Below, piece after piece: positions 1,719-22,798 of a stretch of DNA of 64,000 bases (position 1 is the stretch's first letter; each line of letters opens with the position of its first letter). The stretch lies in NCBI RefSeq assembly GCF_009931435.1, contig NZ_CP043414.1, one strand, 5' to 3'. The position numbers and the translations under genes are program-made. Below the pieces are notes generated by a model. The model did no database searches, had not been told where the DNA came from, and saw only the letters and a program-made list of their open reading frames with translations. The stretch comes from Escherichia coli. Its GTDB lineage: Bacteria > Pseudomonadota > Gammaproteobacteria > Enterobacterales > Enterobacteriaceae.

Positions 1719-1827
1719 TTAACCATCCGTTGCACTTCTCATTTCTGCCATTCCATTGCCGTTGATAAAGAGTTTATCTGTTAATCTGTAAATTGATGTG
1801 AAAACTCTTAGCAAACAGGATAATGCA

Positions 1828-2094
1828 ATGGAATGGCTGGTCAAAAAATCGTGCTGCGATAAACAAGATAACAGACATGTACTTATGCTCTGCGATGCTG
1901 GCGGCGCGATAAAAATGATCGCCGAAGTGAAGAGTGACTTCGCCGTGAAAGTGGGCGATTTACTCTCCCCTTTGCAGAATGCGCTTTACTGCATTAATCG
2001 TGAAAAGCTACATACGGTGAAAGTTCTCTCGGCATGCAGCTACAGCCCCGATGAGTGGGAACGGCAGTGTCAATCGGCTGAGAAAACTCAGTAA
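1828..2094 (+). CDS. pmrD: PmrD connector protein (88 aa)
   Basis: ORF 1798-2094 contains [10 protein letters not shown]...; start taken at the internal Met to give the 88-aa PmrD I recognise. Its 3' end overlaps the 3' end of arnF convergently. Confidence 0.9.
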
Positions 2095-2474
2095 CGTTGT
2101 TTTGTCGTGGGCAGGAAAATCAGCATCAACCCGCTCATAATACAGGCTACTCCCAGTAGTGCTTTCAGCGAAAAAGTCCCTTCCCAGCCGGGAAGTACCA
2201 TTGAAGCAATCCATACCAGCACATAACTCATACTGAGCAAGGCATAGGCTTTGCTTAGTGCAAGTTTATGTAGTGTTTTATACCAACAAAAAACGGAAAG
2301 CAGATAACCCAGCAGCCCGAGTAACAGTATCCGGGCATCCAGGCCAAAAGCTAACAGCGCCGCGATAAAATCCCATAAGTGCGTCATCGGCGGTAGATGA
2401 CTCGCCGCATAACCCAGGCTTAATTGCGCAGCTGAGGCAATAATGACGCTGAATAATCCCCACATCAGGCCCAT
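2088..2474 (-). CDS. arnF: undecaprenyl-phosphate-L-Ara4N flippase subunit ArnF (128 aa)
   Basis: C-terminal 128 aa of the 222-aa ORF match ArnF ([14 protein letters not shown]...); start ATG shares one nucleotide with the arnE stop. Confidence 0.9.
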
Positions 2475-2809
2475 TACACCGTACTCCCGAGGATCACAAT
2501 GCCGCCAATAATGAACGCCACCCCACACCAGTGACGCAGTGATACCGGCTCGTGCCACAGTTTTACTGCAGCCAGCGTCACCCAGACAAAATTCAGACTT
2601 AACATCGGGTAGGCAATGCCTACCGGTACGTTCTGCAAGACCAGCAGCCAGAGCACCATGGCAAGGCCAAGACAAGCCAGCGCCAGTCCCAGCCACAGCA
2701 CGATATGTCTGCGCCGTTTGTTTATCGCCACAAAGCAGGTTGCTTGTTTCTGACACAACTGCCCGGCAACGCTAAGCAAGCTGGCAAAGACTAATGTTAG
2801 CCAGATCAT
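2474..2809 (-). CDS. arnE: undecaprenyl-phosphate-L-Ara4N flippase subunit ArnE (111 aa)
   Basis: 111-aa small multidrug-resistance-like membrane ORF; 4-nt overlap with the arnT stop. Confidence 0.9.
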
Positions 2810-4458
2810 TTGGGCCGATACTGAATCAGCACCAGACGCTCCTGACGATCGATGGCATCTGCGGGCGGAATGGCGAGACTGTTGATATCTTCATCGCGGT
2901 CAACCGAAAGCACGAGTGTAATAACCCCCTCCTGACGATGTTGATTAAGCCAGTTTGCGAACTCATCACCGCTGACAAATCTCCCTTTCGCATCCGGATA
3001 ATTTAGGCCGTATTTCAATTCCCCTGTCTGGCGATACATGATGATGTCATCACGTCTCAGGCTCCATGCCAGACCAGCAGCAACGCCGACGCTATCGGTA
3101 AGAATATAGCGGCTTGGCTGCAGTGATTCTTGTGTCGTCTCGACAAAAAATTGCGGATGTTTTCCTTCCATGACTCTGTCAGGAATTGAAAATCCTACCA
3201 GCAACGCCAGCCCAAGCGGGCAAAGTGCGGCAAAAGGCCAGTTTTTTTCGACGTTTGTTAAGGTATACCAGCCGAAAAATGCCCATAGCGAAAAAATCGA
3301 CCATGCACAGAAGACTTTATAGCTCTCGAAGGTTTGCCACACCGGCGTGCTCATAGGTCCCCAGGGGGAGACCACAAACGTAGCAATAATGCCAGTGACG
3401 CCAAAAGCGATGTTAATCCAGCCATTAATCCGCAACGCCAGAGGATTATTTTTTGCTGCCAGCAAAGCGTAATGCGCCATCAGCATTGCCAGAGGTGCAA
3501 AGCAGGAAAGAATATAGGTGGGCAATTTGCCTTTGGCAACGGAGAAAAACAGCAGCGGCATTACCGCCCAGCTCAATAAATAGACGGTTGCGGAATGCTT
3601 GCGGTTTTTCCAGCCTGTGTACAGTGCTCCGGGGAGTAATCCCAGCCACGGCAGGCTACCGGCAATGATGACCGGCAAGTAGTACCAGAACGGAGCTCTA
3701 TGCTGGGCATCATCCAGTGCAAAGCGTTGAATATGCTCAACCCAGAAAAAATAGTGCCAGAAGTCAGGCTCCCGCTGCGCTATCGCCAGTCCCCAGGGGA
3801 GAACCGTCAGTACGCAACTGATAACCGCCAGCCAGCCGTAAATAAAGAGATCTTTCCAGCGTTTTTGCGTTGCAACCCATGGCAGCACGCTTAATACCGG
3901 CACGGCAAGGGCGAGAAAACCTTTGGTCATCACCCCCATGCCGCAGGTGATTCCCAGCAGTAAAAATCCCGCGCTTTTGCCTTTCCACGTCTGTGCCTGC
4001 ATTGCCAGCCAGAAGCTGCACATTCCCGCCACCAGCCAGAATGCAATAAACGGATCGAGCACGGCATAAGTGCCAATGGCATAGACAATAAACAGTGAGA
4101 GATAAATCACTGCGGCGAGTAGAGCCAGACGTTTATCGCGCCATAAGCGCAGGGTAAACCAGGTCACCAGCGCGGCAGTTAACAGGGTCGCAAAGATAAC
4201 GCCTGCCCGCACACCAAAGTTATTTGCGCCAAATAGCCATTGCCCAATACTGTTAATCCAGTATCCGGCAATGGGTTTTTCGAAATAACGTAGCCCTAAC
4301 ATATGGGGCACAATCCAGTCGCCGGATGCCAGCATTTCCCGACTGATTTCCGCATAACGCGTTTCATCTGGTTGCCAGAGCAGACGCGTGCTGATCGGTA
4401 ACAGGTAATAGCAGGCAATAAACGCGAAGAGGCCGATAAGGTAACGTACCGATTTCAT
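2806..4458 (-). CDS. arnT: undecaprenyl-phosphate-alpha-L-Ara4N transferase (550 aa)
   Basis: 550-aa polytopic membrane ORF ([13 protein letters not shown]...); position in the arn operon. Confidence 0.95.
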
Positions 4459-5348
4459 CAGCGACTACCCGCAATTTGTTGGCAACCCAGCCAGCCTTCA
4501 CGTCCGGCAATATTTCCGCGAACAACTTGTCCGAGCGGCAACGTCCCTGATAACAGTTCGCTTAAAGGGCAAAATGTCACGCCTTCCTGGGCTGCGCGTT
4601 TCAGGAGATCCACAAAATTATGCTGATAAGCGCAGCCTTCAACTTCTGCATGAATGGTATAAACCGGCGTGCCTTTATCTCGCAGGATGCGGTTGAGTAA
4701 CCAACCGTTAAAATCTTCAGCTTTCACATCCCGACCAATCACTTCATCCCAGGTGGGTAAGGTCACCGGAATTTGCGCCGTGCCGGGTTTTCCTGTTTCG
4801 AGCAATGGACGAAACGGCATAGCCCCACGACAATCGCTGTTGTAGCGCAAATGGAACGCTTCTTTTGCTTCGATCACCTGCTGGTCGGCACGCCAGCCAG
4901 CGGCTGCGGAGCAGGTTACCGGTTGGCCGATAATTTCTTCCAGGGTGCGAAGGCCGCGTGCGATATCGTCGACCATTGTTTGCCGATCCCAGTTACTGCT
5001 ATGGGCTTGCCAGGCATGGTGATCCCAGGCGTGCAGGCCGACTTCGTGATGTTTAGCCGCTTCACGAATGATATCGGCATTGGCATGACCAATCTCTTTA
5101 CCTGGCCAGGCCGTACCTGCCAGTAAAATATCCCAGCCATAAAGCGATGCCGCGTTTGAGCGCAGCATCTTCCACAAAAACTGTGGCTTCACCAGTCGCC
5201 AGAGATGGCGGCCCATATTGTCCGGGCCGACGCTGAAAAAAATGCTGGCCTGAATATTATGCTTACTCAAGATTTCCAGCAGACGCGGCACGCCTTCACG
5301 GGTGCCACGAAAGGTATCGACATCAATGCGTAAGCCTACTTTTGTCAT
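4458..5348 (-). CDS. arnD: 4-deoxy-4-formamido-L-arabinose-phosphoundecaprenol deformylase (296 aa)
   Basis: 296-aa polysaccharide-deacetylase-like ORF; overlaps arnA and arnT ends. Confidence 0.95.
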
Positions 5349-7326
5349 GATGGTTTATCCGTAAGCTCGACGGTGCGCAAGAAGAAATCCAGCGTTTCGT
5401 CGATGGTTTCCTGCATATCAATTTTGGGTTCCCAGTCCAGGCAGCGGCGGGCATTACGGATGCTTGGTTTACGATGCTCTACGTCCTGATATCCCTTGCC
5501 GTAGTAGCTGCTACTTTCGACAACGCGAAAGCCCGCAAACGGTGGGAAGTGATGGCGCAGCGGATGTTTTTCGAAGCTCGCCAGCAGCATCTCGCCCAGT
5601 TCCTCAATGCTCGCTTCGTTATCAGGATTGCCAATGTTGATAATTTCGCCGTCGCAGCGATTGCCTGCATTTTCGATAATGCGATACAACGCTTCAATGC
5701 CATCCCGGATATCAGTAAAGCAGCGTTTTTGTTTTCCGCCATCAATCAGCTTAATCGGTGAACCTTCCACCAGGTTGAGAATGAGTTGCGTAATAGCGCG
5801 GGAGCTGCCAATTCGCGCTGCATTAAGGTTATCCAGTCGTGGCCCCATCCAGTTAAACGGGCGGAAGAGGGTAAACTGTAAACCCTCTTTTTCGCCATAG
5901 GCCCAGATCACTCGATCAAGTAATTGTTTAGACACCGAATAGATCCAGCGTGGTTTATTCACCGGGCCGACGATTAAATTAGAATGGTCTTCATCGAAGT
6001 ATTTATCGCTACACATCCCATAAACTTCTGAAGTCGACGGGAAGATGATTCGCTTACGGTACTTCACGCAGTAGCGGATAATGCGCAGATTCTCTTCAAA
6101 ATCGAGTTCAAATACGCGCAGCGGGTTGCGGGTATATTCAATCGGCGTGGCTATCGCCACCAAAGGCAAGACGACATCACATTTTTTGACGTGATACTCA
6201 ATCCATTCGGAATGAATACTGATATCGCCTTCGACAAAGTGAAAATGCGGATGATTCAGAAAACGGCTTATCGCATCGCTGCCGATATCCAGACCGTAGA
6301 CTTCATAGTGATCTTCGCGCAGCAGGCGTTCTGTCAGATGGTTGCCAATAAAGCCATTCACCCCGAGGATGAGTACCCGTGTACGGCGTCGGGCGGCGCA
6401 GGCAGGCTGGCTATTCAAGCGTGAACCTTGCACCAGCCCCAGTGTCTGCGCCAATTGCGAGCCTTGCATAGTAATGCCGTCGCCCGCCTGTCCGGTGACG
6501 ATTTCCAGCGCGCCATCGCCACAGGCAATCAGCAACGGCGCAACAGAAATCACGCTTCCCGGCTGCGCTGCGGATGTATGAGGATGTACGCGTGACGACC
6601 AGACGGTAAATTTTTGATTACCAACATAGCTGAAGGCTCCCGGCCACGGATCGGCGACGGCACGCACCATGTTATGCAATACTGCTGCCGGTTTATGCCA
6701 CTCGAGGAAGCTGTCTTCTGGCGTTCTGCGACCAAAACAGGTGGCTTCGTTTTCGCGCTGGACGATTTCCAGAATATTACCGTCTTTAATGGCGGGTAAT
6801 GTCTGCTCCAGTAGCTGGCGCGCGGCATGGCATAACTTGTGATGAAGCGTAATGGCGATATCGTCTGGCGCAATGGCAATGCGCAATTGGGCCACAATGG
6901 CCCCAGCATCGGCACGTTTCACCATTCGGTGCAATGTCACGCCAGTTTCCGTTTCACCGTTCACCAGCACCCAGTTCAGCGGCGCGCGACCACGATATTT
7001 TGGTAACAGCGAACCATGCAGATTAAATGCGCCTGCAGGGGCGAGCTGCAAAATCTCGTCGTGAATAAGATGGCGATAATAAAACGAGAAAATCACCTCC
7101 GGCGACATTTGGGCAATGCGCTCCACCCATAGTGGATGATTAACGTTATCCGGCGCGTAAACCGGAATGCCTCTTTCCGCTGCAAGTCGGGCAACCGAAC
7201 CATAAAAGGCTTTTTCACCGGGATTATCAGTATGAGTAAAAATAGCGCTAATTTCGTAACCGGCAGCCAGCAGGGCTTCAATACCGAGGCATCCCATATC
7301 GTGGTAGGCAAAAACGACGGTTTTCA

Positions 7327-7327
<1 letters not shown>
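5345..7327 (-). CDS. arnA: bifunctional UDP-glucuronic acid decarboxylase / UDP-Ara4N formyltransferase (660 aa)
   Basis: 660-aa ORF with an N-terminal formyltransferase region and a C-terminal NAD-dependent epimerase/dehydratase region ([10 protein letters not shown]). Confidence 0.95.
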
Positions 7328-8298
<971 letters not shown>

Positions 8299-9456
8299 TT
8301 ATTGTCCTGCGAGTTGCTGAAGGGCTGTGATGACGCGGTCGGCATCGGCGGTGGTCATATCCGGGAACAGCGGCAACGAACAGATGCGTTCGCTATTCCA
8401 TTCGGTATTCGGTAACGACAGCTCGGGAAAACGCTCGCGATAATATTTTTGTGTGTGAGCGGCGCGGAAATGTAACCCGGTACCAATGCCTCTTTCTTTT
8501 AACGCTTCCATCAACGCATCGCGACTGATACCACAACGTTGTTCATCGACACGAATAATAAACAGATGCCAGGCGTGAACGTGCGGCCAGGCGGGAAGGC
8601 TTAATGGCTCAAAGGGGAGAGCTGCCAGAGCTTGCTGATATTGCAGAGCAATTTCGCACCGACGGGTGTTGAGGTGCTCTAATTTGGCTAACTGGGTCAG
8701 GGCAATCGCGGCGTTAATATCGGTCAGATTATACTTATAGCCCGGCGTTAAGACTTCAGCTTGCGGTGCACGGCCCCAGGTTTGTCTGTCATATGCATCG
8801 ACACCCAGACCGTGAAATTTCAGCATCCGTAGCTGGCGGGCAAGGTTTTCATTATCAGTAACAATCAGGCCACCTTCCGCACAGGTAATATTTTTGATGG
8901 CGTGAAACGAAAAAATAGCGGTACCTTTTGCGCCAATATGTCGGCCTTTGTAATACGTACCGACGGCATGGGCAGCATCTTCGATAACTGCGATGCCGTA
9001 ACGTTCGCCAATGGCGCGAATGGCGTCAATATCTGCTGGCGCACCGGCATAATGCACCGGAATGATGGCTTTAGTGCGTGGCGTAATGGCTGCTTCGATC
9101 GTTTCAGGCGTGACCATCAGCGTATCGCGGTCGACATCCACCATTACCGGCGTTGCACCCAACAAGGAGATCATATTGAGGGTTGAAACCCAGGTCAGGG
9201 AAGGCGTAATCACTTCATCGCCCTTGCCAATTTCCAACGCCATTAGCGTGATATGCATTCCGGCGGTGGCTGAACTGACCGCGATGGCATGCTGATTTCC
9301 CGTCAACTGGCAAAAGGCTTGTTCAATCGCCTGATTCTTCGGACCGGTTGTGATCCAACCGGATTCGAGAACCTCTTTAACTGCTGCGAGTTCCTCCACG
9401 CCCATTGCTGGTCGCGAAAAAGGCAAAAATTCTGACATTGCTTTTCCTTCCGCCAT
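8299..9456 (-). CDS. arnB: UDP-4-amino-4-deoxy-L-arabinose--oxoglutarate aminotransferase
   Basis: DegT/ArnB-type PLP aminotransferase ORF. Start chosen at MAEGKAM (385 aa); the ATG at 9438 (MSEFLPF) has the better RBS (GGAAGGA) and may be the true start. Confidence 0.9.
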
Positions 9457-9536
9457 TGAATACCTGTCCACTTATATTTGCTATAAAGAGTGTTGTGTAT
9501 ATTTTGCCATTTGGAGCGAAATTCTAAGGATAGAAT

Positions 9537-9553
9537 ATTAACTTAACCTTAAG
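9537..9553 (-). promoter_or_regulatory. Putative PmrA (BasR) box upstream of arnB
   Basis: On the arn strand the sequence reads CTTAAG-GTTAA-GTTAAT, a hexamer direct repeat with 5-nt spacing about 80-95 nt upstream of the arnB start, resembling the PmrA half-site arrangement. Confidence 0.45.
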
Positions 9554-9745
9554 AAATTAATATTAGACGTAAATATTGAAATTTTTATATTTTTTCTTAT
9601 TTAGGCTTTGCATTTGGCAAAATTTTGAGGCATTTTGCCGGCATCGTAGGATTTTTAATATTACACCAACTGCTAATTATCGCCAGAAATGTCGCTCAAT
9701 TTCACGGTAATTGTCTGGTTGCGCTTGTCTATAGGTGGAGTTTAC

Positions 9746-10348
9746 GTGTTAGCTTTTTGCCGCTCTTCGTTGAAGTCAAAAAAATATTTCATCATTTTAC
9801 TGGCGCTCGCTGCAATTGCCGGACTGGGTACTCATGCCGCCTGGAGTAGCAATGGTTTGCCACGTATCGACAATAAAACACTGGCCAGACTGGCACAGCA
9901 GCACCCGGTTGTCGTTTTGTTTCGCCATGCTGAACGTTGCGATCGTTCAACCAATCAATGCTTGTCAGATAAAACAGGTATTACGGTCAAAGGTACCCAG
10001 GATGCCCGTGAACTGGGCAACGCTTTTAGCGCTGACATCCCTGATTTCGATCTTTATTCCAGTAATACCGTCCGGACCATTCAGTCGGCGACCTGGTTTT
10101 CAGCGGGGAAAAAGCTGACGGTAGATAAACGACTTCTTCAATGCGGTAATGAGATTTATAGTGCAATTAAGGACTTACAAAGCAAAGCACCTGATAAAAA
10201 TATCGTTATTTTTACCCATAATCATTGCCTGACATATATTGCTAAAGATAAGCGTGATGCGACATTTAAACCTGATTATCTGGATGGTTTAGTCATGCAT
10301 GTAGAAAAAGGCAAAGTTTATCTGGATGGGGAATTCGTTAACCACTAA
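9746..10348 (+). CDS. ais: lipopolysaccharide core heptose(II)-phosphate phosphatase Ais (200 aa)
   Basis: Histidine-phosphatase motif (LFRHAERC); start placed at an in-frame GTG ([13 protein letters not shown]...) to match the 200-aa protein with its signal peptide; the upstream ATG at 9689 is the alternative. Confidence 0.8.
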
Positions 10349-22525: not shown

Positions 22526-22798
22526 TGTTATCCCTCTGAAGTTCGTTTTTTTACCATTTAGCCATAGTAAAAACATGAATTGTTTGATTTCGCGCATATT
22601 CGCTCATAATTCGAAAGTGAAACGTGATTTCATGCGTCATTTTGAACATTCTGTAAATCTTATTTAATAATGTGTGCGGCAATTCACATTTAATTTCTGA
22701 ATGTTTTCTTAACATCGCGGCAACTCAAGAAACGGCAGGTTCTCCCACTGAATCAGGCTGTTAATCATAAATAAGACCACGGGCCACGGAGGCTTTCA
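22526..22798. promoter_or_regulatory. Divergent glpTQ / glpABC control region
   Basis: 273-bp AT-rich intergenic region between divergent operons; known in E. coli to carry GlpR operators and CRP/FNR sites. Individual sites were not mapped here. Confidence 0.6.

Follow-up and report, generated by a model that had tools for sequence, protein, structure and literature searches.

The site described here is already known: PmrA (BasR) boxes at pbgP/arnB have been defined in both Salmonella and Klebsiella. The footprints of Salmonella PmrA are reportedly those of Wosten and Groisman (1999), and the primary footprint and SELEX study in E. coli is said to be that of Ogasawara (2012). Experimentally verified PmrA boxes of Salmonella follow the half-site rule CTTAAG-N5-XTTAAT (PMC3973317). 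The same motif has already been pointed out in the E. coli arn promoter (PMC10729948), that paper on EPEC describing the PmrA consensus there as present "with a slight modification." The present analysis adds only bookkeeping: exact coordinates, mapped start sites, a 10-nt spacing that is invariant in ~70 species, and near-total invariance within E. coli.

The pbgP (pmrH/arnB) promoter of Salmonella enterica resembles that of the window (the entire 64,000-nt stretch of DNA analyzed here) in that pmrG/ais is divergent there and ~115 nt separate the box from the arnB ATG. Both follow a common half-site rule (CTTAAG or CTTAAT, N5, XTTAAT), and the box of S. enterica subsp. diarizonae (CTTAATGTTAATTTAAT) aligns column for column with that of the window, with three base differences. 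Neither promoter possesses a PhoP box (PMC2565834). The two species differ in the upstream connection: in Salmonella, PmrD reliably links low Mg2+ and PhoPQ to pbgP, whereas in E. coli K-12 this link is only a conditional one.

Klebsiella and Raoultella loci carry the sequence TCTTAATATTATCCTAAGC ~170 nt before the arnB ATG. This sequence, pbgP box1, has been characterized by PmrA footprinting, NMR, ITC, a crystal structure (4S05), and a PmrA-RNA polymerase activation complex solved by cryo-EM (8JO2) (PMC2565834, PMC3973317, PMC10570014). The Klebsiella pneumoniae pbgP box shares with the window box a direct repeat of 11-bp period, a 5' T, a 10-nt spacer, replacement of the -35 element, and AT-rich sequence upstream. 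It differs in half-site 2, which reads CCTAAG rather than GTTAAT. In addition, Klebsiella pbgP carries a PhoP box along with a second start that depends on PhoP (a feedforward connector loop), and the arnB promoter of the window has neither. Class-II-like activation of the OmpR-PhoB type, as at the PhoB pho box, shows the same tandem repeat, head-to-tail winged-helix dimer, replaced -35 element, and contact with sigma region 4 (PMC10570014), although the pho box differs from the BasR box in recognition sequence and regulator. The ugd and eptA (eptA-basRS) promoters of E. coli K-12 are built like that of arnB, with a box (CTTAATATTAACTTAAT and CTTAAGGTTGGCTTAAT, respectively) followed after 10 nt by the hexamers TATTCT and GAGCAT. 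All three -10 hexamers have A at position 2 and T at position 6. The arnB promoter is unlike the other E. coli BasR promoters in that its mapped start, carried over from K-12, lies 9 nt past the -10 hexamer instead of the usual 7 nt and in that its spacer bases form a third TTAA.

The window belongs to the E. coli chromosome. For the 401 nt surrounding the box, matches at 95 to 100% identity were obtained in 5417 of 5426 complete E. coli genomes, chromosomal in every case and flanked by annotated ais and arnB. Genes were identified by NCBIfam profile searches together with the RefSeq annotation of a strain identical in this stretch. On the plus strand are menE (363-1718) and an intact pmrD (1828-2094; NCBIfam PmrD equivalog, 168 bits). 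The arnBCADTEF operon follows on the minus strand (2088-9438), with all seven genes matching NCBIfam equivalogs above the curated cutoffs and annotated by RefSeq: arnB (8299-9438), arnC (7327-8295), arnA (5345-7327), arnD (4458-5348), arnT (2806-4458), arnE (2474-2809), and arnF (2088-2474). The pmrD and arnF genes are convergent and overlap by 7 nt (2088-2094). The ais (pmrG) gene, encoding an LPS core heptose(II)-phosphate phosphatase, occupies 9746-10348 on the plus strand (NCBIfam PRK15416, 392 bits; RefSeq) and begins with GTG at 9746. For arnB, two in-frame ATGs are available, one at 9456 (NC_000913.3 annotation, 385 aa) and one at 9438 (PGAP, 379 aa). Both ATGs (minus strand) are unchanged in seven species, and the downstream one is where the NCBIfam model and tblastn matches start. 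Depending on the choice between them, the arnB-ais spacer is 289 nt (from 9456) or 307 nt (from 9438) long, and its GC content is 0.24 to 0.29 (9475-9699), compared with ~0.5 in the flanks. An earlier note made from the DNA letters had described a 290-bp AT-rich region between ais and arnB, which is borne out at 289 nt with the ATG at 9456.

Within this spacer, the BasR/PmrA box CTTAAGGTTAAGTTAAT (CTTAAG-GTTAA-GTTAAT) lies at 9537-9553 on the minus (arn) strand, as identified by exact pattern, position weight matrix (PWM), and orthology. Half-site 1 corresponds to 9553-9548 and half-site 2 to 9542-9537. The pattern CTTAAG-N5-GTTAAT, which the earlier note had reported on the arn strand, was found at this position and nowhere else in the 64 kb, against a chance expectation of 0.02 per window; 2 of 100 shuffled windows contained an exact match. 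The box also fits the Salmonella PmrA-box definition CTTAAG-N5-XTTAAT exactly. It departs from the looser consensus YTTAAK-N5-YTTAAK at a single base, half-site 2 opening with G where C or T is called for. With one mismatch allowed, 3 matches occur in the window versus 3.45 expected from shuffles; because this is the number expected by chance, the motif read loosely would not be evidence alone. Its significance derives instead from the exact pattern, the PWM rank, the cross-species conservation, and the fixed spacing to the -10 hexamer. With a PWM built from 68 orthologous boxes, the arnB box was the top match in the 64 kb (19.9 bits versus 14.5 for the next). The second-best match, TCTGAATGTTTTCTTAAC (14.5 bits; 22696-22713, plus strand), is in the glpA-glpT intergenic region and is probably a chance occurrence, with no TTAA core in its first half-site.

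A reanalysis of Cappable-seq data for K-12 MG1655 lists primary starts at 2365854 (+) for arnB and 2365723 (-) for ais (PMC12987492, Table 1). The arnB, ais, and ugd starts rose above the detection threshold in antibiotic-treated samples only and not in the control (PMC12987492). We carried the NC_000913.3 coordinates through a gap-free alignment of K-12 and the window, by which the arnB start would be the A at 9512 (minus strand). Relative to this start, the box spans -41 to -25, and the -10 hexamer TAGAAT (9521-9526, minus strand), assigned from sequence, K-12 alignment, and start-site position, spans -14 to -9. The 10-nt spacer between box and hexamer, ATTCTATCCT, occupies 9527-9536 (minus strand) and is defined by the sequence and by its cross-species spacing. 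As a control on the coordinates, the listed ugd start falls exactly 7 nt after TATTCT, itself 10 nt past the box CTTAATATTAACTTAAT. At the -35 position (17-nt spacing), the hexamer AGGTTA matches TTGACA at only 2 of 6 bases, and the box takes the place of the missing -35 element. The position overlapping the -35 region that the earlier note had described is thus confirmed, the box spanning -41 to -25 relative to the start mapped from K-12. Matches from a generic sigma-70 promoter scan (minus 9705-9676 and plus 9564-9591) fit neither published start and were set aside; that such a scan missed the arn promoter is expected for a promoter without a -35 element. Upstream of the box is an A+T-rich tract (9555-9600, minus strand; GC 0.24), which likely serves as an UP-element-like or curved region by analogy with the Klebsiella cryo-EM scaffold, where the upstream sequence is AT-rich too (PMC10570014).

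The -10 hexamer differs from that of K-12, which reads TAAAAT (the window has G for A at 9524). Of 5426 complete E. coli genomes, only 159 contain the exact window 30-mer around TAGAAT, including base 9524, and 3021 contain the K-12 30-mer with TAAAAT, offset by 9 nt (window 9498-9527). Among relatives, E. whittamii has TAGAAT and E. albertii has TAGCAT. Counted from the mapped start, the arnB 5' untranslated leader (9439-9511, minus strand) extends ~74 nt to the PGAP ATG. An RNA element within the leader was ruled out by the lack of any Rfam match at E<=1 and of excess structure (fold z-score, 0.18). The start site of arnB coincides with an AAATG that is kept in Escherichia, Citrobacter, and Salmonella and opens mini-ORFs of 2 to 9 codons near the mRNA 5' end. 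In the window, this mini-ORF runs from 9510 to 9481 on the minus strand (region 9481-9512) and encodes MAKYTQHSL. An ATG 6 to 12 nt past the -10 hexamer is present in 26 of 69 loci. We rejected the mini-ORF as a functional element, as its peptides are not conserved among loci and no literature on it was found.

For comparison across species, an ArnB probe yielded 80 loci from different Enterobacterales species. The pattern CTTAA[GT]-N5-N[CT]TAA[GTC] was searched on the arn strand up to 400 nt upstream of arnB and was present in 70 of 81 sequences. By comparison, 3 matches were found in the remaining 590 kb of the same loci (both strands), and shuffled upstream regions gave an average of 0.4 loci with a match. 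A hexamer of the form TAnnnT begins exactly 10 nt past the box in 69 of the 70 sequences; among offsets of 5 to 15 nt, one other was seen, at offset 5. The T directly 5' of the box (9554, minus strand; TCTTAAG) is shared by 62 of the 70 orthologous boxes, and conservation extends to two Ts of the spacer. All three of these Ts are present in the window. The boxes of Salmonella, E. albertii, E. whittamii, and Citrobacter can be aligned with that of the window column for column. Within E. coli, the 30-mer formed by the box, its spacer, and three adjoining bases shows no change in 5397 of 5426 complete genomes (99.5%), the K-12 box included, while the surrounding 401 nt varies by up to 3%. The earlier note had written of the operon in this strain retaining PmrA (BasR)-dependent activation, wording that conveys nothing particular to the strain, given the identity of 5397 genomes. 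A rearranged example occurs in Citrobacter amalonaticus S646 (L004, 1250-1490), where an ERIC/IRU-like insertion of ~200 nt separates the conserved arn promoter from arnB. The insertion includes the reverse complement of AGTACGTGACTGGGGTGAGCG, and because of it the box is 327 nt away from the ATG.

Since basRS lies outside the window, the regulator was compared using K-12 BasR. BasR aligns over its full length with Klebsiella PmrA (PDB 4S04/4S05 and 8JO2) at 377 bits. Residues K153, R171, T187, N188, V192, H193, H195, and R198, which read TAA or contact DNA in the Klebsiella PmrA structures, are identical in BasR. Because the DNA-reading residues are identical, we infer that the structural mechanism is reasonably transferable to E. 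coli. Taking motif, placement, and conservation together, we assign a probability of roughly 90% to the repeat at 9537-9553 (minus strand) being the BasR (PmrA) operator of the arnBCADTEF promoter. BasR is accordingly predicted, from sequence, to bind this exact site in the strain analyzed here. In the proposed mechanism, BasS (PmrB) would sense Fe3+, Al3+, or mild acid and phosphorylate BasR, a dimer of which would then occupy the two TTAA-containing half-sites head to tail. Located at -41 to -25 of a promoter that lacks a -35 hexamer, bound BasR would contact sigma-70 region 4 and RNA polymerase and recruit the enzyme to TAGAAT, 10 bp downstream. Transcription would proceed from A9512 through arnB to arnF, and the arn products would add 4-amino-4-deoxy-L-arabinose to lipid A. 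The E. coli genes pbgP (arnB), pmrC, and pmrG (ais) have been reported as Fe3+-induced and PmrA-activated (PMC3140997). The PmrA (BasR)-dependent activation of arn proposed in the earlier note is thus supported by every sequence-level test applied, namely the motif, the start position, the spacing, and the BasR residues. The comparison with mapped PmrA footprints of pbgP that it had suggested points in the same direction, as the Klebsiella and Raoultella loci carry the footprinted box at the same 10-nt spacing.

Among chromosomal routes to polymyxin and colistin resistance via lipid A modification, the arn operon is the main one, and the arnB box is the switch through which mutations in BasRS act. 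The presence of the box indicates standard wiring in this strain; the site itself predicts no unusual resistance behavior. The operator, like the distance separating it from the -10 hexamer, is nearly invariant across E. coli and conserved across Enterobacterales, so that the source of strain-to-strain differences in arn expression should be looked for not in the box but in basRS, pmrD, the -10 allele, or other regulators.

The earlier note had also linked the operon, through pmrD, to PhoPQ. An intact pmrD does lie at the far end of the operon, but the link in E. coli is only conditional, and the presence of the gene does not show that it operates. The encoded PmrD is identical to that of K-12 at 83 of 88 positions, the differences being N11D, S70C, K82Q, V83S, and G85E. 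Under standard conditions, PmrD does not connect low Mg2+ and PhoPQ to PmrA in E. coli K-12, as PmrB is a strong phosphatase (PMC3140997). The link has been seen in E. coli only with iron, low pH, or strong stimulation of PhoQ (bioRxiv 10.1101/2020.05.05.080051). Direct control of arnB by PhoP was ruled out, as the spacer contains no PhoP box: a search of 9439-9745 for (T/G)GTTTA-N5-(T/G)GTTTA gave one match with 3 mismatches (9728-9744, ais strand), which is at chance level. This result agrees with the published finding that Escherichia, Shigella, and Salmonella do not have the direct PhoP branch seen in Klebsiella and Yersinia (PMC2565834). Ahead of pmrD, the sole PhoP-box-like sequence is CGTTGATAAAGAGTTTA (1760-1776, plus strand; 52 to 68 nt before the ATG), which has 3 mismatches and is not above chance.

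Several other explanations of the box were considered. The box could be devoid of regulatory function, a TTAA-rich stretch that arose by chance in the AT-rich spacer; the 24 to 29% GC of the spacer and the 3 one-mismatch matches to the loose consensus (3.45 expected) are in keeping with this. However, chance would produce the exact pattern 0.02 times per window, 70 of 81 Enterobacterales sequences carry the box at a fixed 10 nt from the -10 hexamer, and the box is invariant in 99.5% of E. coli genomes and correctly placed relative to the measured K-12 start. Conservation and spacing data exclude a chance origin of the motif, and the probability of this explanation is negligible. A proposal made for EPEC O125ac:H6 instead holds that PmrA on the box occludes RNA polymerase and that the real arn activator is the paralogue QseB, phosphorylated by PmrB. 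It builds on the constitutive upregulation of arnB and eptA in a pmrA qseC double mutant and on the shift, by phospho-QseB, of a 60-bp oligonucleotide spanning the arn box sequence (PMC10729948). This was the one EMSA on the E. coli sequence found in our literature search. The yibD promoter of UPEC is also bound by both QseB and PmrA (PMC5677524). Nevertheless, the shifted oligonucleotide includes the PmrA box, so the shift may represent binding of a paralogue to that box. The QseB consensus G(C/T)(G/A)ACAAT(A/T)A-N4-TT occurs beside the box only with 3 mismatches (9543-9566), and the window contains 295 such matches versus 270 expected; a QseB operator next to the box was ruled out at this chance level. 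The proposal also sits poorly with a promoter that has no -35 element and whose box is at an invariant activating distance, as in the Klebsiella PmrA-RNA polymerase complex, and with the reported PmrA activation and Fe3+ induction of E. coli pbgP (PMC3140997). We therefore consider it very unlikely. Elsewhere in the spacer, GCGATAATTAGCAGTT (9668-9683, minus strand) has one mismatch to the QseB consensus (two in K-12). Situated ~160 bp upstream of the arnB start and within the ais 5' leader, this match may be due to chance.

Activation of arnBCADTEF by BasR from the box remains the preferred reading, and a further question is whether the same box also serves ais. The mapped K-12 start 2365723 and the alignment place the ais promoter at 9607-9643 on the plus strand, with TTTGCA (9607-9612), 18 nt, CATTTT (9631-9636), and a start at A9643, 131 bp from the arnB start at A9512. 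A shared bidirectional operator, activating ais from ~98 bp upstream of its start, would fit the appearance of the ais, arnB, and ugd starts together, only in induced K-12 Cappable-seq samples (PMC12987492), and the treatment of pmrG (ais) as PmrA-activated in E. coli (PMC3140997). It would also fit the single box: with the PWM from 68 orthologous boxes, the next-best site in the spacer scores 6.1 bits and is downstream of the ais start, and in six relatives with ais adjacent, the same scan picked up nothing besides the arn box and the reverse complement of that box. A second BasR box for ais, including one at the ais -35 position, was ruled out by these scans. On the other hand, the box faces the other way from ais and spans -106 to -90 relative to its start, well away from the position at which OmpR/PhoB-type activators replace the -35 element, and ais has -35-like and -10-like elements of its own. 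Readability of the box on the reverse strand is likewise not associated with an adjacent ais. Mean reverse-strand scores were 6.2 for ais-adjacent loci versus 3.0 for the others, with -2.7 for Salmonella, and 37 of 62 non-ais loci scored at least 4. Given the similar scores of non-ais loci and the negative score of Salmonella, evolution of the box for two-strand reading beside ais was ruled out. Taken together, a shared operator is unlikely. The "divergent ais/arnB control region" of the earlier note is therefore correct as to the divergent genes and the arn box, but the ais start is separate, 131 bp away, and there is no second box.

With no second box, an arn box that is distant and reversed, and no effect of strand readability, the box accounts for arn but not for ais, which is the only point at the locus beyond what is already explained. 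Either the arn box may act on ais at a distance and reversed (-98), or the 15-nt block at 9624-9638 (plus strand) over the ais -10 element, TTTGAGGCATTTTGC, may be an unrecognized control element for BasR or another regulator; we regard this pair of possibilities as doubtful. If true, either would be a mode of control of the PmrA regulon so far undescribed in this family, which is known to act by -35 replacement. The 9624-9638 block is the only other strongly conserved island of the spacer across seven species. Within it, relatives read TTTAAG, which is a PmrA-type half-site, and E. coli reads TTTGAG at the corresponding bases.
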